Shown: piece after piece, positions 6,001 through 30,563 of the stretch | How the letters are laid out: each line of letters begins with the position of its first letter | Numbering within the stretch: position 1 is the stretch's first letter | Assembly (NCBI GenBank): GCA_003599235.1 | Contig: QZJE01000013.1 | Coordinates: 540-64,539 of the forward strand | Reading direction: 5' to 3' | Length of the DNA: 64,000 bases | Source: Actinomycetota bacterium | GTDB lineage: Bacteria; Actinomycetota; Aquicultoria; SURF-47 | Translations under genes and position numbers: made by a program | The notes under the pieces: generated by a model | Told to the model about the DNA's origin: nothing | The model's database searches: none | Seen by the model: the letters and a program-made list of their open reading frames with translations, nothing else

Positions 6001-8722
6001 GGGCTTCTGTAATTACTGTTGAGCCTTCAGGCTCTCCAGCTACTGTTTTTAGCCCTTCTGGGTTGAAATAATATAGATATTCATAGCCTTTTGGGTCAGC
6101 TACTTTGGTGTAGCTTACTTCTCTTTCGTTTGTAGTCCAGGGATTATCGTTAACATTCTCAGTAACATATTCAATATTAATACTGTTACCATTAGGAAGC
6201 TGGGTGGTAACTAGGCTGGTAACGGTCGAGACTCCCCCACTTAAATAGCTAACTTTCGTTTGGCCACCCAAGGGGTTAGTGATAGTTTTGAGACCGTCTA
6301 CATCATAGCTATAGCTGTATGCAACCTCTGTGCTATTTCTTGGTAAGGGGTAAGTAACTTTACTTAAGTTATCTCCGCTAAAAGTATCGTTATATTCATA
6401 TGAATAAGTGCGGCCGGTAAAGTCCACTACGCTTACAACTTTGTGCTCTAGGGCACTCTTGTAATTGAATTTAATAAACCGGCTAGGATTATTATCATCA
6501 ACAATTTTTTCAATATGCCCGTTATCATTATATGTAAAGCTGATTGAGTTACCGTTCTTATCTAGCTCTTTTGCTGCTCTGCCGAAGGAGTCGAACTCAA
6601 CAATGCTTAAGTCTTTGCGTTTTAGAACAAAAGTGTTATTTTCGTTTAATACCAGGTCGTCAGTAGTTCCTTTGGGCCTTTTAAAAGAACCGTTTGGTTC
6701 CTTAGTGTACTCAAAAATAGCTCCTGTTTCATCGGTTAAAATAGCAGTTGAGCTGCCATTGTAATCGACCCTTAGACAATCCGGATAAGAGCTTACACCC
6801 CGTCCAAAGATTCTGGTAGTTTTATCATGGCTATTGTAAGTTCTTGCGACCCTCATTGAGGGGCCTTGGGTTTTGATAGATACGTCACTAGCTTCCAGCA
6901 TCAGGTTGCCGTTTTTAAGATCTACATTTACTCCGCTGTATTCCTTGTAGGTGCGGTAGCTTTTACGTCCATAGTCATTGGCCTCGTATGTAATAACTAA
7001 CCTAGGAGCTTTAGAGCCATCTTCTGATTCTGATGAATGAAAGACCATCTTGCGGTAGGTGTAAACATCATCAAAATACACTTGGCCAGAAGGCAGAGCC
7101 GCAAAATGAAGCCCATTTATCATGCTGTTGCCAAGAGTTATTTGACTAGGTATGAAGCTTAGTTTCTGCCAGCTGCCACCAGGAGGCAATCCCCCAATAT
7201 TTACCTTGTTAGGAAAATAAATATCCTCTTCATGGCTGCCATAGGTGGCAATTGCTCCCCAATAACCGGTGTGCCACGCATCGCCATTTTGTAAACTTAT
7301 GCCCAAATGCTGAGGCGCTGATTGAACAAAACACCAAGCCTCTATTGGGCTGTCTGTTGGAATATAGTAATCATTGCTGGTATTTTTCCAGGAGTTGTAA
7401 ACACGTCCATTAACACTTGTTGATTTAGTGCCTGAATGCAGTGGGGATCCTACCCAAGACCAGCTAGGATTAGTTGGCAATGCATCGTCAATAAGATAAA
7501 CCTTACTGGTATTGTCTAACATAAAGCCGTAATTCTGTGTGGGGCTTGCCTGCCAACCTTTTACAATGTCAGTTACATTAAAAGCTTGGTTGTCAACAGT
7601 ATTATCTGAGGCATCTATTTTTGAATTAGCATCATATTTATTGCTTTTGCTATTCCAGGTTGCAGTTGAATCCCAATTCTCAGTCATTTTGTAAACCCTG
7701 CTTTTAGCTTGGCCTTTATAGTAGGGGGAGCCAGCATTGATATTTGTCTCTGAATTATTAGTGCCGTAATCAGGCATAATATTTTGCAACTTAGCTTCGG
7801 TAATATTGGCGTTACCGGGAATAGAGTTAAGAGGATATCTAATAAGTGTTTTATATTGCTCACTCTCTGACTTAGCTCCCACTCTTAAACGAGTGTCGCT
7901 TGCAAATGAAGAATCGGGTTGAGCAGATGAAACATAGGTATCGGCATCTGGGCGTTCTTGGGTAATAAAAGTTGGGTCAATTTTTACCGGATAAACTCGT
8001 TTAGGGTCTGCTAGCCATTTTCTATCGGCAACTACCCTTAATATGTAGGTAGAGCCGGCTCTTCTTCTCAATGCCATAGTCACGTTAGGAGAATAAGCTT
8101 CTGCTTGAGCTGAGTCTGTCATAAAAGGTTTTTCGATAACTATTGAAGTTTTCTTGTTCTTATCTGTCAAGTTAATAGAGCCGTCTTTTTGAGGAGATGG
8201 GATTAAGTTTCTTAAGTTAAGCTCGAAGGTAAAAACGTTGCTTCGCGGTTTCTTTTTTAGGATAATTTGCTCTTTTAGGCGCCCTTGCTCAGTTAAGTAC
8301 TCTAAATCAGTATCGGTTGTAATATTACTGTAAACTACCTTGTTTTTCGCTTTTTTGATTGGCTTAAAAGCGCGTTTTTTTTCACCTAAAAGCTTGTAAG
8401 TTAACCCAAGATTTTTATTGTCTTTTTTTGCTAGAGAAAACAAATTACTTTGATTATCGCTAAAGTCTACCGTCAGGTTGTTTTTATTTACTTCCTGGGT
8501 AATTTCAGTTGTATAAGTACCGTCTGGATTAAGATAGGTTTTGGAATTAGCTGTTCTTTTATCAGTAAGCTCTACCTTGGTTGGCTTTGGCTTAGCGTAA
8601 GTAATGTTCATTAAAGCGCCTTTAAGGCTTCCCAGGAATGAAAAGTTAACAGGAATAGTGCTAATTATTTGAAACAACAGGCAAAAACAGATGGTTAATG
8701 CTGTTAAGCGTCTAACCCTCAT
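1..8722 (-). CDS. Giant secreted surface protein, partial (start at 8722, C-terminus beyond window position 1); YD/RHS-type repeats, four DUF2341-like repeats, LamG/concanavalin-like regions
   Basis: Minus-strand frame checked at anchor points 8720, 4757, 3542, 3170, 1661 and 572, all in the same phase; the span was not scanned codon by codon, but the track lists no other long ORF across 8.7 kb. ATG at 8722..8720 overlaps the TGA of the upstream gene (ATGA). N-terminus MRVRRLTALTICFCLLFQIIS is signal-peptide-like. YD motifs (e.g. LYDKAGNE near 4757). Motif DFSDLRFTDS...YWIE...IYMYYGNP recurs four times (DNA near 575, 1665, 3170, 3545). Absent from the ORF track because no stop lies inside the window. 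Confidence 0.8.
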   Translation of the reverse strand, partial: MRVRRLTALTICFCLLFQIISTIPVNFSFLGSLKGALMNITYAKPKPTKVELTDKRTANSKTYLNPDGTYTTEITQEVNKNNLTVDFSDNQSNLFSLAKKDNKNLGLTYKLLGEKKRAFKPIKKAKNKVVYSNITTDTDLEYLTEQGRLKEQIILKKKPRSNVFTFELNLRNLIPSPQKDGSINLTDKNKKTSIVIEKPFMTDSAQAEAYSPNVTMALRRRAGSTYILRVVADRKWLADPKRVYPVKIDPTFITQERPDADTYVSSAQPDSSFASDTRLRVGAKSESEQYKTLIRYPLNSIPGNANITEAKLQNIMPDYGTNNSETNINAGSPYYKGQAKSRVYKMTENWDSTATWNSKSNKYDANSKIDASDNTVDNQAFNVTDIVKGWQASPTQNYGFMLDNTSKVYLIDDALPTNPSWSWVGSPLHSGTKSTSVNGRVYNSWKNTSNDYYIPTDSPIEAWCFVQSAPQHLGISLQNGDAWHTGYWGAIATYGSHEEDIYFPNKVNIGGLPPGGSWQKLSFIPSQITLGNSMINGLHFAALPSGQVYFDDVYTYRKMVFHSSESEDGSKAPRLVITYEANDYGRKSYRTYKEYSGVNVDLKNGNLMLEASDVSIKTQGPSMRVARTYNSHDKTTRIFGRGVSSYPDCLRVDYNGSSTAILTDETGAIFEYTKEPNGSFKRPKGTTDDLVLNENNTFVLKRKDLSIVEFDSFGRAAKELDKNGNSISFTYNDNGHIEKIVDDNNPSRFIKFNYKSALEHKVVSVVDFTGRTYSYEYNDTFSGDNLSKVTYPLPRNSTEVAYSYSYDVDGLKTITNPLGGQTKVSYLSGGVSTVTSLVTTQLPNGNSINIEYVTENVNDNPWTTNEREVSYTKVADPKGYEYLYYFNPEGLKTVAGEPEGSTVITEAQKPFFPGASVEQEIAHEYLVYYTVYKDFYEEELGLDEEDLDWLDESYDDFDEDADDLEAEVVARKEIQWEKKQLWNDIWGPAFAKENIPSAELSQPFKHGSECYFEYDNDYNLVKQINKDKTFTSYEYDANGNVLKEINHDHDANEDEQIYLADQARYSARHRVTERSYNQQNLVLAETTPTGKTTNYTYDDKGNLLSETDPDNNTTSYAYDDNGNQVTQTTPEGGVANNRYDALGNIIETIDPVGVSTAFEYDSLGRKTKEQKAGMDFSLTEYDELGRVIRKKEPANDNGDYSVTENTYDAAGNVIFVQAFNNNTDGSSTTKGYNTYSYNVAGQLLEKNNKKGARYSYQYDENGNKTKEINNFRNGETTYEYDKLNRLIKETASDGNWTAYAYDSFGNVTKQGSPEGTSVSLYDKAGNEVATGDQTGNVTKTTYDKEGNERTTADGKNNVVSYNYNQNDNLSTVKDGSLNKTNYEYDNNQNETKVIAPDNTSTAAAYNASDQVTTETDQNVKTVETNYNNSGLTENIIQPNEKNQSLNYDSAGNLTKLNAEGNIQSSVDVENSYDWMGNLVETVTKNPASGQSQTSYEYRYNNDDMIGSVKDASNKVINFQYDPDDKIKNINDSTVETRYEYNSSSKLDYISNNSGKTLSDFSYDKGGKSNNIDQITSPLNALSSLITNYDYDAASKLTSISNARDNGAQGVDELSTYRYYYDKNGNIIKSVAKESSGLYDLFADDFSVFNPVLWNSKNANAYHDPANGQLVLQGDNNTPTNPDTWYDSAWLRRAPLMINNLYNPEDLTDYQVKISIDYDTGMKADFSDLRFTDSNKQTELPYWIEDKTDSKQATVWVKVALIKATSIKTIYMYYGNPEANSQSNGNGFSGSDLGLIPVISGNPTTTKQWYGQAWPNRASLKVDNKDSSSTLTDYQIKVKVPYVSKMQNNFSDLRFTDSDGVAELNYWIESYKRSEEAIVWIKVPEIKANSNKTIYMYYGNPNAGSASDGSKVFDAYNVGGLAAFYNMDEDAFKSNLLTNASFESGLTNWGHYGNLNHAVYSNQASSQHGNNYLETNIITPNNGDSWFQDVNVSASANDNYTFSIYIKSPGGQNISGTLALFDMTGGNYAAGNYFSTNSKEWQRYSVTLPIRNFASLTRALRAQVYMHTPGVNYDFDAAQLEQGSKATEFIEGAASGNVADQTGQNSGTSSSGTATTSDAKFGRAAYFDGLNDSITASDSQSLRISNYSVDFWLKPYGQPNEDFKGLVGKPGRNFNAWLNFTGYIHHCFHTANNVNEFINTPAGNISWDNWNHITLTNNGQTAKTYINGIEKASAPTTPQIVDNTDLMIGRELDSGAARYFKGAMDELKIYNRALSADEVSSVSKNQTQKMGDVFNVCKSAQNEPEVSLNLDWFNEDWLKRSEITLDNTENSNTLNDYPVKLEVDYQPGMKSDFSDLCFTDSDNLTKLAYWIENYTESSRATIWVRVPEIKAALLKTVNMYYCNPLAKSASDGVATFDGFDMQNISAFYKFDEASWNGTPGEVADQIGINNANSFGSASTVPDAKFGRAAYFDGYDDYLETQSPQNVDLSYGSFTVEAWSKRQASDVDNEHGTIMATGGSGWAQGFILQHRNGGFWAEVSDGVGDGKYIQAPGQGISDGAWHHFVLVVNREQNTAYGYLDGKLIAGPIDVSSETGSLHGQGSPVRIGRLGVNSTTDQYFRGCLDEVKIYNQPLTAEQITSRYQNQMEKIADHITIRKLSSVEPTVSVSKPTTIRDWYSDSWTKRAPLRIDNTTNPKTLNNYQVKVVLEYKEAMKSDFSDLRFTDTDKISEIPYWIESKTDGTKATVWLKVPSLLAKSAKTIYMYYGNANAVSASDGNRVFEEYDIKGMQGFWTLDSQTGNTVKDETGVHNGTIVGGLTNSTDAKFNKSANFDGSDDCIELGNWFGYQTFSISMWVNPGNSQVAYANIIDNNHRYGTNWVMQQDNNDINRFYWGISDHSDMHPTNAIGTL

Positions 8723-11436
8723 TTTTTCACCTTTACTTTGATAGCTTTTGAGTTGCTAGCCTTAAATCTTTGTTCTCCGGCAAAGACTGCCTTGATTGTA
8801 GTTGTTTTTCTAAAACGGATTGCTTTGGCAAAAACTCCCTTGGAATTGGTTTTAGCTTTAGCAATTACCCTCCAGACCCACTCTTTAGCCCTAATTGTTC
8901 TGCCATTAACCTTCTTTTTTATAATACGTAAGGCTTTGGCTTTAAAGTTTATCCCTTTATTAGCCAGTGCTCTGCCATTGCTATTTTTTAGTTGGCCCTT
9001 AATAACGGTTTTTTGACCTGCCTTTATTACATATTTCTTGGCTGCTATTGATAACCTGGTGCCAAGAACTTTTATTGCCGGAGAAGGGTTGATTGGATTA
9101 ATGTTTGGGGCTGGAGCACTGGGAGTAGGGCTTAGAACTGGTAGGGCTATTACTACCAAGGCTTGTGTAGCCTCATCAGATGAAGCTCCTTCATCATCTA
9201 TCGCTATAAACTTAATTACATGTGGACCTATCGATAGATTATTAGCATTAAAGCTGATTGCTCTAGAAAGCTCTCCATCGACTGAAGAAGTCCAAATATA
9301 TTCATCAATATCGCCATCTTCATCATTAGCGCTGCCTATAAAACTAACACCTTGGCCCTGAATTGCAGGATTAGGAGTTACAGACTCAATTTTAGCAGTT
9401 GGTTTTTTATTGGTTTGAGCAATAACGGTTACTTCTGTTTCGGCTTCGCTTGACCATAGCCCGTCATCATCTTTAACTTTGAAATATATTGTATGCTGAC
9501 CTGGCGATAAATAATCAGTATCAAATGACTTTTCATCTGAGAGATCATCGTCTATGGAAGAACGCCAACTATACTCGGCGATGCTTCCATCTGAATCATC
9601 ACCATGGCCACTAAAATAAACTGCCTCTGCCTCATTAACAGTTTCCGGGCTTGCTAAATCAATAACAGCAGTGGGTGGCTGATTCGGGGGTTGTATCTCC
9701 AAATTGGCAGATACTTCATCAGACCAAGCACCTTTGTTGTCCTTGACCTTTAAATAAATAGTATGTAGGCCGATTAATAAATCTCCTACACTAAACATCC
9801 TTAAGCTAGGAAGTGTTTCGCCCATAGAAGAGCGCCAGCTATATTCAACGATAGATCCATCATCAATTCCTAATGCTTCAAAAAAAATTGGTGTGTCAAC
9901 GTGCGCAGTTGTTGGATTAAGATAGTTTATCAAAGCAACAGGCTTTTGATTAATATCTATTATAGCGGAAACTTCATCAGAGAAAGCACCGTCGTTATCC
10001 CTAACTTTAAAGTAAATTGTATGGAGTCCAGGAGGCAGGTTGTTAATAGCAAAATCTTTTTGATTTGATAAAGGTCCATTAATGGAAGAACGCCAGTAAT
10101 ATTCTGTTATACTCCCATCTGTATCTAGTCCGCTGCCACCAAATGAAATATTATCCCCCTGGTTAGCTGGGTTAGGACTAATGAGATTTATAGTAGCCGT
10201 TGGAGCTTGATTAATTACCTCTAGAGTGCTAGACGCTTCATCTGACCACTCACCCTCACTATCTCTTACCTTAAAATATATAGTGTGAGCACCGACCGAT
10301 AAAGTACTGGTATTAAAACTGGCTTGATTAGATAGTTGCCCATCTATCGAAGAACGCCAACTGTACTCTCTAATTATTCCGTCTATATCATTTCCCATAC
10401 CATCAAAAGCTACACCTTGCTTTTGAAATGCAGGATTTGGAGTTATCAAATTTATTATAGCGGTTGGTTTTTGGTTGTTAATAATAAAGAGTTTTGTATC
10501 ATCAGCTGTTACTACTTGAGTTGAAACGTTAATTAAATCTGCATTCTCAATTGTTTGAGATGCCTTGTAATATTTTGTTTTATATACTTGGGCATCATCA
10601 TAAAACCTTAGTTTGTAATTACCATTTCGAAGGCCATTAAGCTGATAATTACCCTGAGAATCGGTTGAAGTACTGAATAAATAAGTCGAATTGGCATCAA
10701 ATAAACCGACTTCAATATATTCAAGAGGCTGGTCAATGTTATTTGTAACTTTACCTATTATTTGAGAAGGCACCTCTAATTCAGCATTAATATTCTCTAA
10801 TTCTTGAGTAGAGTTTAAGTGAACAGAGCTAGCGCTAGTAAAATCTGATTTATCATTATAATATTCATAAGCGTAGCTATCTGCTAAAAATAAGACCTTG
10901 TAATCCCCGGAAGGTAAGGCGCTTATTTCATAGCTTCCATTGGACTCACTATATCCAGAGCTAATATAATGGCCATTTAAGTCAAAAGCAGATATCTCAA
11001 CATTTTCAACAGGCAAGCCGGCGTTGTCTGTGACAACTCCTTTTATCAAAGACGCTGGCTCTAAAATACTATTATTAATACTAAGGCTTGAACCGTTACT
11101 AAGCGAAATTGAATTAGCTTCTTCTAGACAATTGCTGTTTTGATAAAATTTTATTGCATAATAGCCAGTGTAATCGATGAATTTGATTTTATAATTACCG
11201 TCGGCTAAATCTGTAAAAGTATAGTTGCCGAAAAAGTCAGTGAATTGAGTATCGAGTGGCTCTCTATTGCTATCAAATATAGTCACTTCGATTTCTTCTA
11301 TTGCTTGGCCAGATGCATTGTTGACTTTCCCGGTAATTGAACCTGACCCTAAACCATAAGAAGGATTACTAAATAATATAAGAGATAAAGCTATTAATAT
11401 TATAACCAAGCCCAACTTCTTTAGATGCATGTACAA
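8719..11436 (-). CDS. Secreted repeat protein: signal peptide, three Cna-B / carboxypeptidase-regulatory-like domains, six ~88-aa PKD-like repeats, Lys/Arg-rich C-terminal module
   Basis: 905-aa ORF. Repeats of the form KPTA.INLI.PNPA.QG..V.F.G.G.D.DG.I.EY.WRSS..G.LS....F....L..G.HTIYFKV.D..G.WSDE occur six times. Track start is TTG at 11436; an in-frame ATG at 11430 is the more likely start. Confidence 0.8.
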   Translation of the reverse strand: MYMHLKKLGLVIILIALSLILFSNPSYGLGSGSITGKVNNASGQAIEEIEVTIFDSNREPLDTQFTDFFGNYTFTDLADGNYKIKFIDYTGYYAIKFYQNSNCLEEANSISLSNGSSLSINNSILEPASLIKGVVTDNAGLPVENVEISAFDLNGHYISSGYSESNGSYEISALPSGDYKVLFLADSYAYEYYNDKSDFTSASSVHLNSTQELENINAELEVPSQIIGKVTNNIDQPLEYIEVGLFDANSTYLFSTSTDSQGNYQLNGLRNGNYKLRFYDDAQVYKTKYYKASQTIENADLINVSTQVVTADDTKLFIINNQKPTAIINLITPNPAFQKQGVAFDGMGNDIDGIIREYSWRSSIDGQLSNQASFNTSTLSVGAHTIYFKVRDSEGEWSDEASSTLEVINQAPTATINLISPNPANQGDNISFGGSGLDTDGSITEYYWRSSINGPLSNQKDFAINNLPPGLHTIYFKVRDNDGAFSDEVSAIIDINQKPVALINYLNPTTAHVDTPIFFEALGIDDGSIVEYSWRSSMGETLPSLRMFSVGDLLIGLHTIYLKVKDNKGAWSDEVSANLEIQPPNQPPTAVIDLASPETVNEAEAVYFSGHGDDSDGSIAEYSWRSSIDDDLSDEKSFDTDYLSPGQHTIYFKVKDDDGLWSSEAETEVTVIAQTNKKPTAKIESVTPNPAIQGQGVSFIGSANDEDGDIDEYIWTSSVDGELSRAISFNANNLSIGPHVIKFIAIDDEGASSDEATQALVVIALPVLSPTPSAPAPNINPINPSPAIKVLGTRLSIAAKKYVIKAGQKTVIKGQLKNSNGRALANKGINFKAKALRIIKKKVNGRTIRAKEWVWRVIAKAKTNSKGVFAKAIRFRKTTTIKAVFAGEQRFKASNSKAIKVKVKK

Positions 11437-11586
11437 AATAACATCCTCTCAATTAGATTTACTTGGTAAGATGGCTAGTACTTCTAAGTGGTTTGACGAC
11501 TACTGATAGATAACTCAATATTATATCCTACTATCGCCATAATGCCAAGCGTATGGTTATGATACAACCGAATAATGAAGTTGACT

Positions 11587-11610
11587 ACCCTAAAAATTAG
11601 GGTATTTTTT
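11587..11610 (+). promoter_or_regulatory. Perfect palindrome ACCCTAAAAATTAGGGT followed by ATTTTTT; terminator-like on plus strand or operator
   Basis: 7-bp stem, 3-nt loop, T-run on the plus strand, yet both flanking genes are minus-strand. Embedded in the direct repeat TTGACTA..ATTAGGGT (11581-11603 and 11610-11626). Confidence 0.3.
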
Positions 11611-11667: not shown

Positions 11668-14097
11668 CTACTTTACTGCTCTTAGGTGTTTTTTCTCAAC
11701 ACTCTTTTTAGCAGTAGAAGAGCGGCCTTTTAGGTAGATTTTATTGGCGATTTTTACAAAGACTTTGGCGATAATTGGGTCAAATTGAGTACCGGCATTG
11801 TTTTTAATCTCTTTAAGGGCAACTGATAGCGGAAGTGCTTTGCGGTATGGCCTGTCGGAGGTCATGGCGTCGAAGGTGTCAGCCACAGCTAAAATGCGAG
11901 CTCCCAGAGGAATTACCTCACCGGCAATGCCGTTGGGATAGCCTTTGCCGTCGTATCTTTCATGGTGATGCAGCACGATTGGCATAATATCTTCTAAATC
12001 CGAATATTGCTCGATAAGCTTCTTGCCGATTTTTGGATGTTGCTCAATTAAGGCTCTTTCTTCGTCTGTTAAAAACCCCGGTTTGTTGAGGATTTTGTCG
12101 CTGATACCAATCTTGCCGATGTCATGCAGTTCACCGGCTACTTCTATCATCCGAACTTCTTCTTCTGATAAGCCCATTTCTTTAGCGATTTCTACCGAAT
12201 ACTTTGTTACTGCATCGGAGTGACCTTTGGTGTATGGGTCTCTGGCTTCAACAGCGCTGATATAGATGTTTATTACCTGCAAGTTACGCCGCTCTTCGTC
12301 CTCTCTTAGCTTAGTGTTCTCTATAATTTGGGCTACATTAGCAGCAACAGTTCTTACCAAATCTGTATCTTCATTGGTAAAACGCCTTTTGTTTTTCACT
12401 CTATTGATGCTTAAAACTCCCAAGAACTTGCCCCTGGCCTCTAGGGGTACGCAAATAGCGGAGTTAATATGGTCTCTTTTAAGAAACTTTCTTAAAGCCT
12501 CGTCTTCATTGTCAATTATCACCAGCTCTTTATCTTGAGCCACCCTGCCGGCAATGCCCTCACCCAGCTTTACTTTGTTGTAATAATACTTGTGAGGAAC
12601 TCCCCGGCAAGCGCTTATCTCCAGAGTTTCTGTTTTGTCATCATAGAGCATAATGGAGCCGCCCTCAGACTGAGTAGCTATAAAAGCGCTGTCGATAGTG
12701 CCATCCAGCACTTCACTTAAGTCTTCGTTAGAGATTATCTTCTCGGCTTGGTTATACAAAGCCGCCATTTTCTTAACTTCATTGGAACGCTCTAAGGCTA
12801 CAACCGCACGGGAAGAGAAGTCGTCGAGTAAGCGCAAATCCTGGCTGGTATACATATCGCCCGACTTCTTACTGCCCAAGGCCAGCATAGCCACCATGTC
12901 ATCTTTGGTTTTTATTGGGACAAGTACTTCTACGCCATTATCTCTTAGGTTGTTTTTAATATCGTTTTCTTCTTCTAGTTCGTCTGTTACCAGCATTTCA
13001 CTATGGTCGAAAAGATAGGTCGAAAACCCTTGCCAAAGCCTTTTGCCTGTCGGAAAACCAATAGCTTGCACCTGATTTACCTGAGAGCTAGTAGTTAGCA
13101 CAAAAGCTGCATTGTTTATTTTCATCTGGTCTGTTAGTGTGTCTAGCCAGTTCTTGATTAAGTTCTCTTCCCTAGCGTACGTTAAGCTGATATTGTCCAG
13201 CTCCCTTCTTAACTCTGCTGGTTTATACCGCCCCTTGGCAAATAGCCTGTCAGTGTGATCTTCGATAAACCGCCTGAGGGGGTTGAATGTGAACACGAGG
13301 ATAAAAAGAGCTACTATATTGAGTGCTAGCGGATTGATGATGGGTTTTAGCTTGTCCAGAAATAGATAAGTGACGGTAATATATATGCCTGCTATTACTG
13401 ATAGAGTTAGCGTATAAGCTACAGAGCGTAGAACCAATAGACGTATATCCATAAGCCGGTGTTTTACTATTGCATAAGATGCAAACCCAACAAAAAACAA
13501 AGATCCCGGGCTATCCAACATATAAAGTTTATAAATACCAAGAATCGGCAGAATAATGTCTACAAAAGTTACCCAAACAGCAAATAAGATAATTCCTAAA
13601 AAAACGAACTCGGCCTGTCTCTTTCTTGGACCAATATGTCTTTTGTTAATAAAAAATAAAGCAAAAAACCAGACTGTATTGATTAAAATATAAACAGCAA
13701 ATAAAGGAAAAAGTAAACCATATTCAACTTCTGAACCGGTTATACTGAAAGTTTTGACTTTTTCAACAACCATTGGAGTTATCCCAATAGCGCCCACCAC
13801 TAAACCGAAAGCATAAACTAGCAATGCAAGCTTTCGGTTATCATAATAGAAAATCAGCATCCAACTAAGATAACAAGAAATACAGATCGCGCCAGTTGCA
13901 TACATAAGTCTAATTAACAGGAGATTGTGCACATATAAAGCGGTGAGATTAACCCCTATCCAGGAAATTGTGGCAATTGTTAAAATAAAAAAATTGCGAT
14001 TAATCGCAGACTTCTTGTTTCTTATAAAAACAAGCAGACCTAGAAGAAAGTTAATTATAATACTAAAAGCAATTATTGACTTAAGAATACTCAGCAT
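11668..14097 (-). CDS. Membrane sensor phosphodiesterase: N-terminal 7TM region, GAF-like middle, C-terminal HD-GYP domain
   Basis: 809 aa. Multi-TM N-terminus with RLMDIRLL motif. C-terminus carries ELHDIGKIGISD and HHHERYDGKGYPNG (HD and GYP signatures). Confidence 0.8.
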   Translation of the reverse strand: MLSILKSIIAFSIIINFLLGLLVFIRNKKSAINRNFFILTIATISWIGVNLTALYVHNLLLIRLMYATGAICISCYLSWMLIFYYDNRKLALLVYAFGLVVGAIGITPMVVEKVKTFSITGSEVEYGLLFPLFAVYILINTVWFFALFFINKRHIGPRKRQAEFVFLGIILFAVWVTFVDIILPILGIYKLYMLDSPGSLFFVGFASYAIVKHRLMDIRLLVLRSVAYTLTLSVIAGIYITVTYLFLDKLKPIINPLALNIVALFILVFTFNPLRRFIEDHTDRLFAKGRYKPAELRRELDNISLTYAREENLIKNWLDTLTDQMKINNAAFVLTTSSQVNQVQAIGFPTGKRLWQGFSTYLFDHSEMLVTDELEEENDIKNNLRDNGVEVLVPIKTKDDMVAMLALGSKKSGDMYTSQDLRLLDDFSSRAVVALERSNEVKKMAALYNQAEKIISNEDLSEVLDGTIDSAFIATQSEGGSIMLYDDKTETLEISACRGVPHKYYYNKVKLGEGIAGRVAQDKELVIIDNEDEALRKFLKRDHINSAICVPLEARGKFLGVLSINRVKNKRRFTNEDTDLVRTVAANVAQIIENTKLREDEERRNLQVINIYISAVEARDPYTKGHSDAVTKYSVEIAKEMGLSEEEVRMIEVAGELHDIGKIGISDKILNKPGFLTDEERALIEQHPKIGKKLIEQYSDLEDIMPIVLHHHERYDGKGYPNGIAGEVIPLGARILAVADTFDAMTSDRPYRKALPLSVALKEIKNNAGTQFDPIIAKVFVKIANKIYLKGRSSTAKKSVEKKHLRAVK

Positions 14098-14178: not shown

Positions 14179-15636
14179 TTACTTTAGTTTCCTTGCATAT
14201 TCATTAAAATTAAGAGCTAAATTAATTGCTGATGTTGAAGTCACATTTTTGTTCCATAAACATTTTATTATAAAAATGTTTTTAGCAACATTAAATCCTA
14301 GCGTCTTGATAGTAAAAATAAAGCGTCCTTTAGAAAAAACGGTTTGTTTTTCGTTTCTACCTCTAACAAAAACTTTATTTCTCCAAAGGTTAGTAAATCT
14401 GGAATGCATTGAATTGTATTTATATAGATGTTTCAAGAGCCTGTTTCTCTCAGATTGCAATATCGTTGGAGAAATCTGCTTTGTCTGAAAGCAAACTTTT
14501 TCTCCATCATACTCATGCCATAGATTAGAAGTTATTCTTCCTTGACTAGCTAAACGCTCATATAACAAAGTACCAGGCGCAGGAGTGATTAAGTTAATCA
14601 TTGAAAAAGCTAAATTTGTATCCTTTATGAAGTTACTTGTTGCTTCAATAGTTGCAATGTCGTCATTGTCATTCCCTAACATAAATGATCCAATTACAGC
14701 TATCCCATTCTTATGTATTAGGTTAACAATCTCCTTATACTGTTCTACCTTATTAACTTTGCTTTTGTTTAATTCAAAAATACTCTCTTGTTTAACTGAT
14801 TCAAATCCTATAAAAACAGCCCTACAACCAGATTCATACATTAATTTAAGAAGCTGGCTGTCATTTAAACGATTTATTGCTGCTTGGCACCACCAACTAT
14901 TAATCTTAAGAGGAATGAGGTTTTTGAAAAGGCTTTTAGCAAACTCGGGTTTAGCCAACAAATTATCGTCTGCGAAAAAAATCATTTTTTTTGGGTCAAT
15001 AGCCCTTAAATAACGAATTTCCTCAATCACTGTATGCACTGACTTGTTTCTATATTTATGTCCATTAAAAGACCAAACAGAGCAAAAATCACAACTATTT
15101 GGGCAACCTCTTCCTACTTGGACAGTAAAATAACAATATTCATGAGTTTTGAGCAGATCCCACCTAGGAATTGGTGAATTAGTTAATGATGGGGGGGTTT
15201 TCATTCGATAAATTTTTTGTAGTTTGTTTTGCTTAAAATCATTAATTAACCCAGGCCAAAGTTCATCAGCCTCACCAATAACAATGCTGTCAGCATGCTT
15301 TATTGCTTCATCGGGTAACATTGAGACATGTATACCGCCTAGAACAACCTTAACCCCTCGTTTCATAAATTCATCTGCTATCTCGTATGCTCTCGGGGCT
15401 AGGGAAGTAAGAAAAGAAATTGCTACTAAATCAACTTGCTCCTCGAAATCAATGCGCTCAACAACTTCATCATTAATAATAACTTCAACCTCTGAAGGAG
15501 TTAGTGCTGCTAAAGTTGGGAGAGATAGGATAGTACCTCCTGCTTTTCTCCCAGTTATCTCTCTGACAGTTTTAAAATCCCAAAAACTCTCGCCCCATTC
15601 AGGCTTTCTGGCTGGAGCTATCAGTTTAATTTTCAT
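14179..15636 (-). CDS. B12-binding-domain radical SAM protein
   Basis: 485 aa. N-terminal B12-binding-like region; radical SAM cysteine triad CPNSCDFCSV. 4-bp overlap with the upstream gene. Confidence 0.75.
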   Translation of the reverse strand: MKIKLIAPARKPEWGESFWDFKTVREITGRKAGGTILSLPTLAALTPSEVEVIINDEVVERIDFEEQVDLVAISFLTSLAPRAYEIADEFMKRGVKVVLGGIHVSMLPDEAIKHADSIVIGEADELWPGLINDFKQNKLQKIYRMKTPPSLTNSPIPRWDLLKTHEYCYFTVQVGRGCPNSCDFCSVWSFNGHKYRNKSVHTVIEEIRYLRAIDPKKMIFFADDNLLAKPEFAKSLFKNLIPLKINSWWCQAAINRLNDSQLLKLMYESGCRAVFIGFESVKQESIFELNKSKVNKVEQYKEIVNLIHKNGIAVIGSFMLGNDNDDIATIEATSNFIKDTNLAFSMINLITPAPGTLLYERLASQGRITSNLWHEYDGEKVCFQTKQISPTILQSERNRLLKHLYKYNSMHSRFTNLWRNKVFVRGRNEKQTVFSKGRFIFTIKTLGFNVAKNIFIIKCLWNKNVTSTSAINLALNFNEYARKLK

Positions 15637-16820
15637 TTTATTATTCCTGACAATGCCTCAATTAGCACATCAAGATGCTCTTGTTCATGAAGAGCTGTTG
15701 GCACAATTCTCATTCTTGCTGTATTTGGTGGAACAGCTGGGCTTCTAAAGCTCTCGATAAGTATTCCTTTATTAAATAGCTTTTCAGATGCTGATACAGC
15801 CTTCATATCATCGTATAGCATCAGCGGCAACACCGGGGATACACCGTTTCCTAAGATATCAAAATTCAATAATTTTATTTTGTCATAAATATAATTGTAA
15901 TTACTAAAAAGCTTTTGCCTTAATGAATTATCGTTAATGCTAAGCTCTATTGCCTTTATTAATCCACCAGCCACTGGTGCAGAAATTGGCGAAGAATAAA
16001 TGTAAGGCCTGAGCGTAATTCTTAAATAATCAATAAGTTCTTTTTTGCCAGCTAAAAATCCACCCATTCCACCAAGCGCTTTGCTAAAAGAACCCATGAT
16101 GATATCTACTTGCCCCTCAAGCCCAAAGTGCTGTACGGTGCCCCCTCCATTATCGCCAAGGATTCCAATAGAATGTGCATCATCTATTAAAACCATCGCT
16201 CCATATTTCTTAGCTAATTCAACTATTCCTGGCAAAGGAGCTAATTCTGCCTCGAGACTAAACACACCTTCTGTAACAATTAATTTAGGCTCTTCTTTAT
16301 CCACATTGGATAGTTTTTCTTCTAAATCTGTTAAATCATTATGCTTAAAAACCGCTAGCTTGGTATAACTTTGTCTGTATCCATCAGCAATTGAAGCATG
16401 GTTACTTTCGTCACTTATAAGGATTCCAGAACCTCTTTTATAGTCTGAAGTAAAAAACATAGGATCCAGCAAAGCGCTGATAATACCACTATTTGCTATG
16501 TATCCGGTAGGAATAGTTATAGCTGCCTCAGTTTGAACCAATTGGGATACTTTTAGTTCAAGCTCTTCGAGCAAAGCTAAGTTGCCTGATAGCAACCTTG
16601 ATGTTCCTGGCCCAATTCCGTGCTCTCTAGCAGCCTCGATAGAGGATTGAATAACTTCTGGATGAGTTGATAAGCCTAAATAATTGTTTGAGCAGAAATT
16701 TATGTAATCTTTATTGTCGATTGTTATTATTGGCTGAGTTGAACCTTTGGCGACTGTTTTTATTTTTGGATAAAGACCTGATCCTTTAATATGATTCAGG
16801 GTATCGTATATGTGCTTCAA
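15633..16820 (-). CDS. PLP-dependent alpha-oxoamine synthase family enzyme (BioF / Kbl / serine palmitoyltransferase / CqsA-like)
   Basis: 395 aa. Motifs LIDDAHSIGILGDNGGG and GSFSKALGGMGGF (PLP lysine). Confidence 0.8.
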   Translation of the reverse strand: MKHIYDTLNHIKGSGLYPKIKTVAKGSTQPIITIDNKDYINFCSNNYLGLSTHPEVIQSSIEAAREHGIGPGTSRLLSGNLALLEELELKVSQLVQTEAAITIPTGYIANSGIISALLDPMFFTSDYKRGSGILISDESNHASIADGYRQSYTKLAVFKHNDLTDLEEKLSNVDKEEPKLIVTEGVFSLEAELAPLPGIVELAKKYGAMVLIDDAHSIGILGDNGGGTVQHFGLEGQVDIIMGSFSKALGGMGGFLAGKKELIDYLRITLRPYIYSSPISAPVAGGLIKAIELSINDNSLRQKLFSNYNYIYDKIKLLNFDILGNGVSPVLPLMLYDDMKAVSASEKLFNKGILIESFRSPAVPPNTARMRIVPTALHEQEHLDVLIEALSGIIK

Positions 16821-16837
16821 TCCTTATTCCCTTGTAA

Positions 16838-18592
16838 TCAGCAATTAATGTCTGAATATAATTTATCTATTGCTTCTCTGTAAACGTTGCCGATTTTGTC
16901 TCTGTTTATACTACTGTCGTCGTTTAGAAAACGGTTGTCTTTTGTAAATTCATTCCTTAGTAGTTCGAACTTCTTAATTTGCTCATGTCTGGAAAAACCT
17001 TTTAGCTGCTTATTAATCTCAGCTTGGATAAACTTCCTAATCTCTTTATTCTTTACAATCTCTCTCTTTCTATTCAACCCGAATTTTCGGCTAATCTGCT
17101 TATAATCTGGAACAATTAAGGCAGCAATGTGTTTTTTATCATCCCCAACAACTGCTGCCTGCTTAATATATTTACTAAGTGTAACTTCTGCCTCTATAGT
17201 CCTGGGAGAGACATTCTTGCCGGTAGAAAGCACAATTACTTCTTTTTTCCTTCCAATAATCTTTAAGTAGCCTTCTTCGTCCATCTCGCCTAGATCGCCC
17301 GTCTTAAACCAGCCATCATCCAGTATCAATTGAGGCCCACAGCCATTTCCATAATAGCCCTTCATGATTCCCGGCCCCTTAATTAGCACCTCACCATCAT
17401 CAGCAATTCGAACGCTTGTATTAGGCAACGGGTGGCCAACTGTGCCAATCTTATAATCATCCGGCTTGTTCACTGACACTATAGGCGAATACTCCGTCAG
17501 CCCGTACCCCTCTAACACAGGAACGCCACTAGCATCAAAGAACATCCCCACCTTGGGGTTAAGAGCAGCCCCACCAGATATCATAAATCGCAGGTTGCCG
17601 CCAAGTGTATTACGTATCTTTCTATAAACCAACGCATCATATACCTTGTATTGAAGCTTCTTTCTGTTCTCTTTTTTACTGCCATACTCGATAGCTTTCT
17701 TAGTTACTTTGCTCAACAACTCTTTGGAGTTAATCTGCTGCACAATGCGTTGATACGACTTCTCATAAAGTCTCGGAACACCAATAATGACTGATGGCTT
17801 ATGTTGCTTAACAACAGGAGTAAATTTCGCAATATCAGTCAAATAAGCAATACTTGCCCCTTGCATTAATGGAATGTAGTATCCTGCCATCTGCTCAAAA
17901 GCATGTGATAGGGGTAAAATTGATAAAAACTTATCGTCTGGTCTGATGTATACATTACCTAAAGTGCCTTCGGCGTTCGAAATAATGTTCTTGTGGCTAA
18001 GCTCTACTCCGCGGTATTTGCCGTTTGGGCCGATGGTAAAGATAATGCTGGCGGTATCATACTGGTCAATATCAGCTATTAAATCCCTGTACAATTCACT
18101 GTGATTATCATGTGGCATAAGCTTAAGGGCTTCAATAAAATGGCATTTATCGTTTTTGAACTCAGATAAATCCTCTTTAAGCTCCACATTATAGTAAAGA
18201 AGCATGACCTTTTTCTCAATTTCCTTCTTAATACCAATAAGCTTAGCTAGCATGCGTTTTTCTGAAACTATAATAACCTTGGGGTCAATCTCTAAAATAA
18301 TCTCTTTTATCTGATCTGCGGTTAATGTGGTGTGTATGGGGGCAAAAATAGCTCCTAAGCTGATAGCTGAGAGGTCTGATACTACCCACTCTGGCCTGTT
18401 CTCGGATAAAATAACAACCCTGTCTCCCTTCTTGACTCCTAATTTTTCCAAGGAAAGAGTAAAGTTTTCTACTAAATTAAGAAGACGCCTGTAAGTTACT
18501 TCGCCGAATGTATGGCCGTCTTTGTATATTAAGCAGGGGTTTTCCGGATTATTAGTTGCACTCTTTATAAATGCCTGGGGGATAGTATTCAT
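16838..18592 (-). CDS. Long-chain acyl-CoA (or acyl-ACP) synthetase, AMP-forming
   Basis: 584 aa. Adenylate-forming enzyme motifs (GGAALNP..., YGLTEYSP, KTGDLGEMDEEGYLKIIGRKKE). Confidence 0.8.
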   Translation of the reverse strand: MNTIPQAFIKSATNNPENPCLIYKDGHTFGEVTYRRLLNLVENFTLSLEKLGVKKGDRVVILSENRPEWVVSDLSAISLGAIFAPIHTTLTADQIKEIILEIDPKVIIVSEKRMLAKLIGIKKEIEKKVMLLYYNVELKEDLSEFKNDKCHFIEALKLMPHDNHSELYRDLIADIDQYDTASIIFTIGPNGKYRGVELSHKNIISNAEGTLGNVYIRPDDKFLSILPLSHAFEQMAGYYIPLMQGASIAYLTDIAKFTPVVKQHKPSVIIGVPRLYEKSYQRIVQQINSKELLSKVTKKAIEYGSKKENRKKLQYKVYDALVYRKIRNTLGGNLRFMISGGAALNPKVGMFFDASGVPVLEGYGLTEYSPIVSVNKPDDYKIGTVGHPLPNTSVRIADDGEVLIKGPGIMKGYYGNGCGPQLILDDGWFKTGDLGEMDEEGYLKIIGRKKEVIVLSTGKNVSPRTIEAEVTLSKYIKQAAVVGDDKKHIAALIVPDYKQISRKFGLNRKREIVKNKEIRKFIQAEINKQLKGFSRHEQIKKFELLRNEFTKDNRFLNDDSSINRDKIGNVYREAIDKLYSDINC

Positions 18593-18746
18593 TATTGCCC
18601 ACCATCTAATGAACTTACAATTAAGTTATTTATTTTCCCATTTCGAGTAAACATAACATAACCTGGCGAGGCAATTATTTACCGCTAAATTGCAGTATAG
18701 AATATTAATTGTACCAAAAAAGTAAAAATATGGCAACAAAGCAGTA

Positions 18747-18775: not shown

Positions 18776-18997
18776 CTAGAGGAGCTTTTTAAGAGATTCT
18801 TTTTTTACATTTGCTCTTTTTAGAATAGCTTCTAATGTGCCCTTTTTTAAGTCTTTACTATGATAAGGAACAGGAATGGCTTTCTTAAGCTCTTCATTGA
18901 CCATAATTACATGACTACCAGTTTGGCGCTTAACATAGAAGCCAGATTTCTCTAGTACTTTAATTACCTGCTTCGGCCTTAAGGAAGGAGTTTTCAT
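18776..18997 (-). CDS. hicA: HicA-family toxin (mRNA interferase)
   Basis: 73 aa. Matches the HicA pattern K.LEK.GF...RQ.GSH......VP.H..KDL.KGTL..IL. Overlaps hicB by 4 bp. Confidence 0.8.
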   Translation of the reverse strand: MKTPSLRPKQVIKVLEKSGFYVKRQTGSHVIMVNEELKKAIPVPYHSKDLKKGTLEAILKRANVKKESLKKLL

Positions 18998-19212
18998 GCA
19001 GCAGTTATCTTTACATCAACTGTCTCTTCTTCTATCTTAGGTGGTTTCCAGCCCATTTCTTCCATAGTCTCAAGATACCCCTTGATAGCATCTTTGATAT
19101 TTTCTAAAGCCTCCTTTTTAGTGTCGCCCTCAGATACAACATCTGGAAGTTTTGGTACAAATACTGTATATCCACCTTCTTCTTGCCTTTCAAGTATCAC
19201 TTTGTATGTCAT
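18994..19212 (-). CDS. hicB: HicB-family antitoxin (UPF0150 fold)
   Basis: 72 aa. MTYKVILERQEEGGYTVFVPKLPDVVSEGDTKKEALENIKDAIKGYLE matches the HicB N-terminal consensus. RBS AGGAGGG upstream. Confidence 0.8.
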   Translation of the reverse strand: MTYKVILERQEEGGYTVFVPKLPDVVSEGDTKKEALENIKDAIKGYLETMEEMGWKPPKIEEETVDVKITAA

Positions 19213-24113: not shown

Positions 24114-24509
24114 ATGAAGAAGAAGGAAGCTCAAGAACTACAAGAAGCCGTATCTCATTTCTTGGTTAGAAACCGCAGTATTCTTGATGTAATGGCAAAA
24201 TTCGCCGAGTCTAATGCAAAGGTAAACAGCGCTATTGTTAAGTCGGTAACTCACTGCGGCTGCTTAGAAATCGATGCCTCAAAGCAACCGATTCCCGAAG
24301 GAACTAGTATCGCCGAGATGCTTTCTTATGTCCAAAGCCATATTAAAGGGAAGTTGTGTGATAACTGCCGTCAAATATTAGAAGAAGATATCGGCAACAG
24401 CCTTTTTTACTTAACCGGTATTTGTGCCTTATTAGACCTTGACTTAGAAGAGATCATGAAAAGTGAAAACTCTGCCATTTCTACTTTGGGAGTTTATTCA
24501 CTGACTTAG
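24114..24509 (+). CDS. Hypothetical small protein with two Cys pairs (HCGC...CDNC)
   Basis: Track start is TTG at 24096; AGGAGG at 24104-24109 followed by ATG at 24114 suggests the shorter form. Converges on disA with 4-bp overlap. Confidence 0.5.
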   Translation: MKKKEAQELQEAVSHFLVRNRSILDVMAKFAESNAKVNSAIVKSVTHCGCLEIDASKQPIPEGTSIAEMLSYVQSHIKGKLCDNCRQILEEDIGNSLFYLTGICALLDLDLEEIMKSENSAISTLGVYSLT

Positions 24510-25579
24510 ACGTATCTTTCCATCAAAGATGCTTCTCTGAAACGCCTAAGCGAATCATGTATTTCTTTGGCCCTGGATTTAGCAACCCCGGGCACTTCTT
24601 CTAAGTCCGTTGCCTTAGCTAATAAAACAGCTTGCAGGGAGCCGAATTTATTAACTATTTTATCAATAACAACTAAAGGCAAACGGGGCACTTTCTTCAA
24701 AACCCGGTATCCGCGGGGATGAATGTTTGTATCTAAAATGCTGATGTCGCCATCATAGCCCAGAGCCTTGGCAATATTTAGCAGATCAAGCATTTCCTCG
24801 GAAGTAAGCCTTTTTAATTGAAGTTTAATTTCTTCGATATCATGTTTAGGCTTAGCATAGTCCTTAATAATAGCTAAACTATGCTCTGGAATATTTGCCA
24901 GTAGCTCCTCAGACTGAACCTTGATTAATTTTCCTTCACTTCCTAATTCATAGACATAACGGTTAATCTGGTCTGCCACCCGCTCTACCATAAGCGAGCG
25001 CTGTAAAACGATAACAACATCTAATAAAGTTACTAAGTCCTCATATTCGAGAGCACCTAAATTAGCATCAACCTGTTCTAGGCGCGTTTTGTATTTTTCA
25101 AACGCTTGTAGGGCTTGATTGGCTTTTGCCAGAATACTTCTGGTATCTCTTAAAATATACTTAATGTTGTCCACATATAGCGTCACAGATTGCCGCTTTT
25201 GAGAAACAGAAATTACCAAAGCTTTGGTTTGTTTGGCTACCCTCTCTGCTGTTCTGTGCCTCATTCCGCTCTCACTTGTATATATTGAGGAATCAGGAAC
25301 CAGATGAACATTGGAACGCAGTATTTGGTTAAGCTCGCTGTCCATGATGATTGCGCCATCCATTTTCGTAAGTTCATATAAGCGTTGGGGGGTAAATTGA
25401 CAATACAGCTCAAAGCCTCCGTTACTCATTTTAAGCACGTTTTCGGTATCGCCAATGACAATTAAACCACCTGTTTTGGCACTAATAATATATTCGATTG
25501 CCTCGCGCAAATCAGTCCCCGGTGCGATTTTTTTAAGCGCATCAGCTAACATTTGCTGTTTTTGAGTTCTTGTTGTCAC
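24506..25579 (-). CDS. disA: DNA integrity scanning protein DisA (diadenylate cyclase)
   Basis: 357 aa. DGAIIMD and SGMRHRTAER motifs, C-terminal HhH region. GTG start with AGGAG upstream. Confidence 0.85.
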   Translation of the reverse strand: MTTRTQKQQMLADALKKIAPGTDLREAIEYIISAKTGGLIVIGDTENVLKMSNGGFELYCQFTPQRLYELTKMDGAIIMDSELNQILRSNVHLVPDSSIYTSESGMRHRTAERVAKQTKALVISVSQKRQSVTLYVDNIKYILRDTRSILAKANQALQAFEKYKTRLEQVDANLGALEYEDLVTLLDVVIVLQRSLMVERVADQINRYVYELGSEGKLIKVQSEELLANIPEHSLAIIKDYAKPKHDIEEIKLQLKRLTSEEMLDLLNIAKALGYDGDISILDTNIHPRGYRVLKKVPRLPLVVIDKIVNKFGSLQAVLLAKATDLEEVPGVAKSRAKEIHDSLRRFREASLMERYV

Positions 25580-29516: not shown

Positions 29517-29526
29517 TTAAACCCCC

Positions 29527-29556
29527 GTTGTTCGAACTTTGAACTTCGTTGTTCGT
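29527..29556. promoter_or_regulatory. Direct repeat CGTTGTTCG (n12) CGTTGTTCG with internal GTTCGAAC palindrome, 11-40 nt upstream of clpC
   Basis: Two identical 9-mers 21 bp apart in the 49-bp mcsB-clpC spacer. Confidence 0.35.
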
Positions 29557-29565
29557 TATCTAATT

Positions 29566-30555: not shown

Positions 30556-30563
30556 GGGTAATT

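Follow-up and report, generated by a model that had tools for sequence, protein, structure and literature searches.

Four consecutive minus-strand genes on contig QZJE01000013.1 of an Actinomycetota bacterium (assembly GCA_003599235.1; lineage Aquicultoria, SURF-47) encode a fatty-acid ligase, an alpha-oxoamine synthase (AOS), a radical S-adenosylmethionine enzyme (rSAM) with a B12-binding domain, and a multi-transmembrane sensor with an HD-GYP domain. What does such a set of enzymes do beside a sensor? We addressed this question in a 64,000-nucleotide stretch of the contig (the window), in which the operon runs from position 18592 to position 11668. A sequence-only reading of this stretch had proposed that the three enzyme genes form a pathway for either an amino-lipid or a signalling molecule; comparative synteny favors the signalling branch of that proposal. 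We consider the chances even that the four genes encode a synthase set for a lipid-derived signal together with its cognate receptor. We favor this reading because the ligase-cassette-sensor architecture recurs, because the input module of the sensor is shared, and because the enzymes of the cassette between ligase and sensor are variable.

The genes of the operon are listed below, with the sensor gene (11668 to 14097, minus strand) divided into its parts.

16838 to 18592, minus strand: ACSL/FadD11-like adenylate-forming fatty-acid ligase, 584 aa, ATG start (AMP-binding, PF00501, 4e-71; AMP-binding_C_3, PF23562, 8e-12)
15633 to 16820, minus strand: pyridoxal 5'-phosphate (PLP)-dependent AOS, 395 aa, TTG start (Aminotran_1_2, PF00155, 9e-48)
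14179 to 15636, minus strand: rSAM with B12-binding domain, 485 aa (PF02310, 5e-10; PF04055, 5e-17)
12763 to 14097, minus strand: sensor input module, residues 1 to 445, with a multi-transmembrane bundle, a short extracytoplasmic beta-hairpin and the first GAF domain (hydropathy, AlphaFold2 model)
12298 to 12762, minus strand: second GAF domain of the sensor, residues 446 to 600 (PF13185/PF01590/PF13492 at residues 458 to 594)
11668 to 12297, minus strand: predicted HD-GYP cyclic di-GMP (c-di-GMP) phosphodiesterase output of the sensor, residues 601 to 809 (HD_5, PF13487, 1.7e-43)

The open reading frames (ORFs) and their translations confirm the tight coupling of the three enzyme genes that had been noted from the sequence, and the coordinates and spacing were exact. 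A gap of 17 nt separates the ligase stop from the AOS start, and a purine-rich, Shine-Dalgarno-like AAGGG/AAGGA stretch lies within it, upstream of the TTG codon. The AOS stop and the rSAM start share a 4-bp ATGA overlap, through which the rSAM is predicted to be translationally coupled to the AOS. The sensor gene begins 81 nt past the rSAM gene, and a consensus scan detected no terminator-like site in between. Strong Pfam matches bear out the earlier domain assignments for the three enzymes, and the GAF and HD_5 matches do so for the HD-GYP sensor that had been recognized downstream. The statement that no acyl carrier protein (ACP) gene is visible also holds, as a search of all frames of the window for the phosphopantetheine motif G-x-D-S-[LIVM] found none; the operon contains no ACP gene and has no room for one between its genes.

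Starting from homologues of each of the three enzymes, we collected related loci, to a total of 12 in three lineages, the window included. Eight of these are distinct loci of one kind, the window and seven others whose ligases are 60 to 71% identical to its own, and in all eight the ligase is followed by a short variable cassette and then by a gene for a multi-transmembrane GAF HD-GYP protein. Their gene orders are as follows.

Window: ligase, AOS, rSAM, sensor
L001: ligase, short-chain dehydrogenase/reductase (SDR) of the extended, epimerase/OleD/HpnA-like type, rSAM, AOS, sensor
L094: ligase, rSAM, AOS, sensor
L087 and L093: ligase, AOS, sensor, without an rSAM
L085: ligase, rSAM::GNAT fusion, RaSEA-like rSAM, sensor
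L086: ligase, rSAM, PigE/acyl-ACP-reductase-like thioester reductase, sensor
L088: ligase, weakly matching GNAT, methyltransferase, sensor

The AOS is found in five of these eight loci and the rSAM in five, both together in only three and in two gene orders. The ligase-AOS-rSAM triad, which the sequence-only reading had taken as the functional unit, is thus not conserved as such; what is conserved is the ligase together with the HD-GYP sensor, which that reading had mentioned just briefly. A 321-aa gene product of L085 and a 341-aa gene product of L086 display no homology to each other. Flanking genes differ among the loci, so that only the ligase-to-sensor block is conserved. In two further loci of the Candidatus Aquicultor type, whose ligases are approximately 49% identical, the ligase gene is followed by those for a FeeM/LuxI-like N-acyltransferase, for a methyltransferase and for a protein with both GGDEF and HD-GYP domains. 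The acyltransferase matches the Pfam families Autoind_synth, FeeM and Acetyltransf_5 and passes the NCBIfam model TIGR03694 (121.7 bits against a cutoff of 111.95).

In total, the linkage of ligase to sensor was observed in 10 ligase-bearing loci besides the window, and in an 11th locus, cut by a contig end, the AOS is linked to the sensor. As a control, we used 80 loci of generic ACSL-type ligases (30 to 37% identity) obtained from an over-general scan with AMP-binding motifs; within 6 kb, all 80 lack any AOS or HD-GYP domain, and neither this rSAM nor the input module occurs there. Because the arrangement recurs across loci and is not found in the controls, it is not due to chance. A metagenome scan with the clade-specific P-loop peptide of the ligase retrieved only four contigs, all duplicates of known loci, and the window ligase clade is rare.

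The degree of conservation decreases along the block. Relative to the window, identities among the sibling loci are 60 to 70% for the ligase, 51 to 59% for the HD-GYP domain, 39 to 45% for the second GAF domain and 30 to 38% for the input module, an order that would be expected if ligand-facing parts diversify. The AOS of the window is only 37 to 39% identical to the AOSs of the sibling loci. Together, this gradient and the low AOS identity fit a joint diversification of signal and receptor.

The cassette itself bears traces of exchange. GC content at third codon positions is 0.285 for the AOS and 0.270 for the rSAM, against 0.417 for the ligase and 0.414 for the sensor, and the AOS-rSAM cassette is compositionally foreign to its operon. 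In a neighbor-joining tree, the window AOS nests among AOSs of Patescibacteria, apart from those of the sibling loci. Two fragments in sibling loci have the look of remnants left by rearrangement: L094 has a second copy of residues 1 to 23 of the rSAM (87% identity; around 3771 to 3839) right after the ligase and before the intact rSAM gene, and in L087 a fragment resembling the AOS N terminus (around 11345 to 11488) lies in the spacer between ligase and AOS. Composition, tree placement and fragments would all fit a history in which the cassette was replaced while the genes on either side stayed fixed. Each cassette enzyme would be predicted to use an acyl thioester or to tailor the product of one that does, and the expected products are single-chain amphiphiles.

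Three sibling loci harbor a second tandem module downstream of the first sensor (L001, 13718 to 17485; L085, 16698 to 19824; L086, 15459 to 19130). It consists of a UbiE-like methyltransferase, a PaaK-like adenylating enzyme of approximately 510 aa and another HisKA_7TM sensor, and in L002 the sensor of the second module is a full 7TM-GAF-HD-GYP protein. The second module echoes the pattern of an adenylating enzyme beside a 7TM sensor.

The link to Patescibacteria extends to the sensor. In one patescibacterial locus (L097) the order is ligase, AOS and histidine kinase; in another (L098), whose upstream side ends at the contig end, an AOS and a kinase are followed by three response regulators and more kinases. 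Both kinases start within 2 nt of the AOS stop. Their first 430 to 460 residues, comprising a transmembrane bundle and the first GAF domain, are 30 to 32% identical to the window sensor (E values of 3e-47 and 1e-56), while their C-terminal outputs are unrelated to that of the window sensor. As the input modules are homologous and the outputs are not, a shared input has been wired either to a phosphorelay or to c-di-GMP hydrolysis, and the AOS gene adjoins the input module in both versions. We also considered whether the two kinases carry a CqsS-type sensory domain, but among the NCBIfam models listed, the matches are confined to the kinase core, from residue 444 onwards, save for one weak match, to HrmK, that starts at residue 370. 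The input module of the window has no relevant NCBIfam match, and none of the CqsS type.

The adjacency of such synthases and kinases in the candidate phyla radiation (CPR) has been described in a census, based on BLAST and hidden Markov models, that counted 362 "CqsA homologues" in the CPR, found a putative sensor kinase beside 51 of them, and also treats RpfB and RpfF (Bernard et al. 2020, mSystems, PMC7567580). The patescibacterial half of our observation is therefore an already published prediction, and the patescibacterial relatives of the window AOS, which directly precede kinases, probably belong to the class of loci counted there. The census describes neither the 7TM-GAF input module that both kinds of sensor share nor the version with HD-GYP output, and it is silent on the ligase, the rSAM, the swapping of cassettes and the AOS insertion described below. 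Our literature search likewise found no account of any of these features, the invariance of the ligase and the B12 domain of the rSAM included.

By hydropathy, the 809-aa sensor has approximately eight or nine predicted transmembrane segments; Pfam matches add an HD-GYP domain and two GAF regions. The HD motif LHDIGK and the GYP motif HHHERYDGKGYP are intact in its translation, and the output domain is predicted to be a c-di-GMP phosphodiesterase. In an AlphaFold2 model of the input module (pLDDT 90.7), the membrane part is a bundle of helices, accompanied by a small hairpin on the extracytoplasmic side and by a GAF domain; for the membrane part no solved homologue was found, with at most a weak likeness to generic 7TM bundles. 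An alignment of ten input modules revealed common motifs: YAIxKHRLMDIR after the transmembrane bundle, FxFxPLRR..TD..F, and, in the GAF domain, LGxKxSGDMYTxQD. The HisKA_7TM model (PF16927) matches the sensors of L085, L086, L087, L093 and L094 and leaves the window sensor unmatched even at E values up to 1.

The AOS belongs to the AOS family of PLP enzymes, with the aminotransferase class I/II fold. Its catalytic motifs SDESNHASI, DDAHS and SFSKALGG align with their counterparts in the Thermus AOS (ThAOS), Kbl and serine palmitoyltransferase (SPT) in alignments with PDB entries. The protein nevertheless falls below every NCBIfam equivalog cutoff: 372 bits against 535 for the BioF/Kbl subfamily model TIGR01825, 356.5 against 426.45 for bioF (TIGR00858), 356 against 460 and 304 against 493 for the two Kbl models, and 325 against 640, 277 against 500 and 224 against 670 for the SPT models. 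Against the solved structures of the Thermus AOS, Kbl and Sphingobacterium SPT it scores approximately 248 to 250 bits each and is thus equidistant from the three, among which PDB sequence and fold searches do not place it. The logic of fatty-acid activation followed by PLP-dependent condensation and then by tailoring through the rSAM, as suggested previously, fits all of our findings, but curated models place the AOS outside the orthologues of CqsA and of SPT.

A marker for this AOS subfamily is an insertion of 9 to 18 residues directly before the SDExNHAS motif, which contains the PLP-stacking histidine. The insertion occurs in all seven sensor-linked AOSs (in the window it reads DPMFFTSDY) and in 11 near relatives. 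It is absent from the solved Thermus AOS, Coxiella Kbl and Sphingobacterium SPT and from six annotated Kbl/BioF proteins. In a neighbor-joining tree calculated without the insertion columns, the insertion-bearing AOSs form a clade with modest support (bootstrap 60/100). The closest relatives of the window AOS (46 to 53% identity, approximately 420 aa) are largely from Patescibacteria.

The rSAM contains the CxxxCxxC motif as C178, C182 and C185, conserved across 49 homologues. Only one further cysteine is conserved in this set, and an auxiliary cluster is thus unlikely. The protein reaches no curated equivalog (its best scores are 124 bits for HpnJ, cutoff 578, and 93 bits for the ladderane-lipid rSAM, cutoff 360). 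Its AlphaFold2 model (pLDDT 94) has the fold of a cobalamin-domain rSAM, with AprD4 (TM-score 0.71), MgmA, TsrM, OxsB, CysS and TokK as the nearest solved folds at 12 to 18% identity. AprD4, the best structural match, has the B12-type rSAM fold but is not known to use cobalamin, and is a dehydratase and not a methylase. Whether the rSAM is a methylase was also considered on the basis of the PDB and fold matches, but these do not discriminate. Homologues of the rSAM bear a C-terminal DUF4070, as do the hopanoid methylases, and in the literature we found DUF4070 in hopanoid methylase papers only. That the reaction is a methylation is a guess, a prior expectation from how frequent this reaction is in the family. 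The five cluster-linked rSAMs lie within a subclade comprising 24 of 100 proteins, together with proteins labelled Actinobacteria and Aquicultorales. The possibility that this enzyme belongs to an unrelated housekeeping family found no support, as it falls into no curated housekeeping family. The rSAM shares with the class B enzymes HpnP, HpnR, HpnJ, the ladderane rSAM, TokK, CysS, MgmA and the non-methylating AprD4 an N-terminal Rossmann/B12-type domain, a TIM barrel and the CxxxCxxC motif, and differs from them in lying far below curated cutoffs and in its low identity to the solved structures.

The ligase reaches none of the NCBIfam equivalogs, the best being FadD11 (256 bits against a cutoff of 950). 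The ANL motifs GYGxTE, TGD and GRxK are intact. The P-loop at residues ~185 to 197 reads TIGPNGKYRGV and not the canonical TSGTTGxxKGV (T-S-G-T-T-G-x-x-K-G). The canonical sequence has been lost in nearly all ligases that are at least 47% identical to that of the window, with P0254 and P0264 as exceptions. The loop reads T[IVL]GPNGKYRG in the window clade and TP(G/S)A(T/N)G(R/K)YIG in the Aquicultor clade, whereas the ligases of Patescibacteria, including that of L097 beside the AOS and the kinase, retain TSGTTGHLKG (TSGTTGHLKGV). The degenerate P-loop is conserved across the clades linked to HD-GYP proteins, and the ligases are otherwise highly conserved. A P-loop that is conserved yet degenerate is an enzymological puzzle of its own.

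Taking these components together, a route from fatty acid to c-di-GMP can be proposed. The ACSL-type ligase would activate a fatty acid, and the AOS would condense the acyl thioester with an amino acid to yield a long-chain alpha-amino ketone of the kind produced by CqsA and SPT. The rSAM would then modify an unactivated carbon of the amino ketone, with methylation as the prior expectation and an AprD4-like rearrangement or dehydration as a further possibility. The hydrophobic product would be detected by the multi-transmembrane/GAF input module of the adjacent sensor, whose HD-GYP domain would in turn alter c-di-GMP hydrolysis. We infer this chemistry, and the pairing of ligand and receptor, from sequence.

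The operon resembles CqsA/CqsS of Vibrio and LqsA/LqsS of Legionella, in which a PLP enzyme of the AOS family condenses an acyl-CoA with an amino substrate and its gene lies beside that of a polytopic receptor, thought in CqsS/LqsS-type systems to bind the hydrophobic product within its transmembrane region. An AOS gene accompanies a polytopic receptor gene in the window operon as well, and lies directly before the sensor gene in L087, L093, L097 and L098. The differences are that the window AOS is not a CqsA orthologue, that the input module lacks a CqsS-type match, that the output is an HD-GYP domain instead of a histidine kinase, and that a dedicated ligase and a B12-domain rSAM are added. 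The rpf/diffusible signal factor system of Xanthomonas (RpfB, RpfF, RpfC, RpfG) is similar in that a system for a fatty-acid-derived signal has genes for a long-chain acyl-CoA ligase and an HD-GYP protein in one cluster. In the window, however, sensor and HD-GYP domain form one polypeptide and not a kinase plus response regulator, the candidate synthase is an AOS (or, in other loci, a GNAT), and no gene of the crotonase family or for an RpfF-type enoyl-CoA hydratase was found in the window or any related locus. As judged from these comparisons, the operon would be analogous to CqsA/CqsS, LqsA/LqsS and rpf but a member of none of these families.

Several observations weigh against a signal synthase paired with its receptor. 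The AOS lies outside the CqsA clade (NF005526, 162.6 bits against a cutoff of 428), and no CqsA structure is among its PDB matches at E values of 1e-20 or below. Since the P-loop of the ligase is degenerate, the activity of this enzyme is uncertain. Homologues of the rSAM with similar identity occur outside such clusters; one example is a 52%-identical protein from Elusimicrobiota, which also falls outside the subclade of the cluster-linked rSAMs. The input module is widespread and portable, with 189 representative clusters at E values up to 1e-30, mostly attached to kinases, and more than 2,300 at up to 1e-10; among the top 150 clusters, 111 have kinase outputs, 13 HD-GYP and 3 GGDEF. A distant paralogue is encoded within the window itself (41773 to 43731, plus strand; 652 aa; HisKA_7TM, GAF and GGDEF; 22% identity to the sensor input module over 446 aa, E value 9e-22). 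Its neighbors are a CbiM-like gene and a GH113 gene, with no lipid genes, so that the adjacency of input module and lipid genes is not universal. This protein could be the synthesizing counterpart of the HD-GYP sensor, or it could be a sign that the input module is general-purpose. The patescibacterial loci inspected were two. Finally, membrane homeostasis systems are organized in this way too, with a lipid enzyme and a membrane sensor cotranscribed.

The main rival, which we regard as unlikely, is a pathway for membrane amino-lipids, in which the ligase and the AOS turn scavenged fatty acids into a sphingoid-type long-chain base or another structural amino-lipid, the rSAM introduces a methyl branch, and the sensor monitors the state of the membrane, as in des-desK. 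The clusters for bacterial sphingolipids (Spt, ACP, ACP-synthetase, CerR and bCerS in Caulobacter; Spt in Sphingomonas and Bacteroidetes) likewise combine an acyl-activating ANL enzyme with an AOS, and the window AOS matches Sphingobacterium SPT as well as it does Kbl and ThAOS, but the SPT cutoffs are widely missed and no ACP is encoded. The Caulobacter ceramide cluster contains CerR and bCerS along with an acyl-activating synthetase, and parallels to the former two can be seen in the epimerase/OleD/HpnA-type SDR of L001 and the GNATs of other loci. No ceramide-finishing N-acyltransferase or reductase is present in the window, L087, L093 or L097, no locus has a complete ceramide set, and a signalling protein is always attached. 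The B12, rSAM and DUF4070 architecture is that of the hopanoid methylases, and Patescibacteria must scavenge lipids; both points would accord with a lipid pathway. Cassette content, on the other hand, shifts radically among genomes with 60 to 70%-identical ligases, which would be unusual for a core membrane lipid, the AOS of L098 sits in a block of two-component genes, and the Aquicultor variant employs an enzyme of the LuxI/FeeM type.

We think it quite improbable that the block serves to sense and turn over fatty acids. According to this explanation, the sensor would detect fatty acids of exogenous or host origin, or lipid signals, which the ligase would consume or recycle in the manner of RpfB, and the middle genes would be accessory catabolic or detoxifying functions. 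That ligase and sensor are the invariant pair, with varying enzymes between them, is in agreement with this. The rpf cluster of Xanthomonas likewise combines the acyl-CoA ligase RpfB with the HD-GYP protein RpfG. The AOS, the FeeM/LuxI-like enzymes and the thioester reductase are, however, biosynthetic and not catabolic; genes for beta-oxidation, and for an RpfF-type enoyl-CoA hydratase, are lacking nearby in the window and the sibling loci; and a degenerate P-loop speaks against a ligase of high catabolic flux.

Chance adjacency of housekeeping genes (a BioF or Kbl, a general FadD and an unrelated rSAM, with a sensor that just happens to follow them) is very improbable, for although BioF/Kbl-type models are the top NCBIfam models for the AOS (TIGR01825 372, bioF 356 and Kbl 356 bits) and the AOS of L001 scores just above the bioF cutoff (428.8 against 426.45), the window AOS is below all cutoffs, has the subfamily insertion, which BioF and Kbl lack, and lies in a clade apart from them, no bioA, bioB, bioD, bioW or tdh is found among the annotated ORFs of the window, the 17-nt gap and 4-bp overlap couple the genes, and the linkage spans 12 loci and three lineages with 0/80 in the controls. 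The suggestion that the AOS might prove to be a BioF is not supported, as it neither groups with BioF nor has bio genes nearby within the window.

Two elements were considered as operon ends.

18708 to 18736, minus strand: candidate operon promoter, a promoter-like TTGCCA-17-TACAAT with TG within the 183 nt that separate hicA from the ligase gene (consensus match)
11586 to 11604, no strand assigned: palindromic hairpin beside a T-run, 64 nt past the sensor stop, possible operon terminator (consensus scan)

The gene after the sensor has a strong promoter-like site of its own at 11548 to 11520 (consensus scan). The number of promoter-like matches in the region is not above that expected from shuffled sequence, and as they are at chance level, the promoter and terminator scans serve solely as a weak guide to the operon ends. 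Rfam detected no RNA family anywhere in the window. The operon is flanked by the housekeeping genes radA, disA, carD, ispD, ispF, gltX and secG, and by genes for surface proteins downstream. Directly upstream, between secG and the ligase gene, lie genes for a HicB-like antitoxin (72 aa) and a HicA toxin (73 aa; 18776 to 19212, minus strand for the pair), which may mark the point of insertion of the entire block.

Further features of the window concern signalling and the cell surface. A second HD-GYP (HD_5) protein of 413 aa, soluble-looking, is encoded at 57646 to 58887 (minus strand) and adjoins a gene for a DUF5317 membrane protein (57060 to 57641, minus strand); with this protein alongside the others, the window encodes at least three c-di-GMP turnover proteins. 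The disA gene (24506 to 25579) points to c-di-AMP signalling. The region from 1 to 8722 (minus strand) appears poor in ORFs because a single giant ORF of more than 2,900 aa fills it and continues past the window start. Its product has a signal-peptide-like N terminus and internal repeats at spacings in multiples of 3, and is predicted to be a giant secreted or surface protein. Two other large proteins of surface type are encoded at 8719 to 11436 (minus strand; 905 aa; CarboxypepD_reg, SdrD_B and PKD domains) and at 32622 to 36674 (minus strand; 1,350 aa; Big_13 and other Ig-like repeats). The stretch from 27024 to 31082 (minus strand) groups genes for a ClpC-like AAA+ chaperone, for a McsB-like ATP:guanido phosphotransferase and for a McsA-like UVR-motif protein, an arrangement that resembles the protein-arginine-kinase quality control of the Firmicutes type. 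Near the GC-richer end of the window, a multiheme c-type cytochrome with paired CXXCH motifs and MtrC/MtrF-like matches (60193 to 61218, minus strand) adjoins an IS200/Y1-transposase-like ORF (61435 to 61992, plus strand).

If the operon does encode a lipid-derived signal and its receptor, it would represent a quorum-sensing-like circuit in uncultured Actinomycetota-related bacteria, in which a lipid signal leads to c-di-GMP breakdown without a phosphorelay. A broader proposal, which we make tentatively and hold to be possible but doubtful, is that these loci constitute a hitherto unrecognized modular family of lipid autoinducer systems, with an invariant ligase and a 7TM-GAF receptor placed around a hot-swappable cassette, lineage-specific signals, and output through c-di-GMP turnover in Actinomycetota-like bacteria or through a phosphorelay in Patescibacteria. 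The window would then have a Patescibacteria-type AOS cassette within an operon of different composition, which would permit signalling or eavesdropping between episymbiotic members of the CPR and the bacteria around them. The signalling reading of the operon, if correct, would also illustrate how signal chemistry can diversify through exchange of the cassette, with the activating enzyme and the receptor scaffold retained. Signalling in the CPR has so far been addressed by homology censuses only, and the AOS subfamily marker, together with a defined receptor input module, provides a testable handle on cell-cell signalling in Patescibacteria. The signalling reading would also give the large orphan family of 7TM-GAF sensors a candidate class of ligands.

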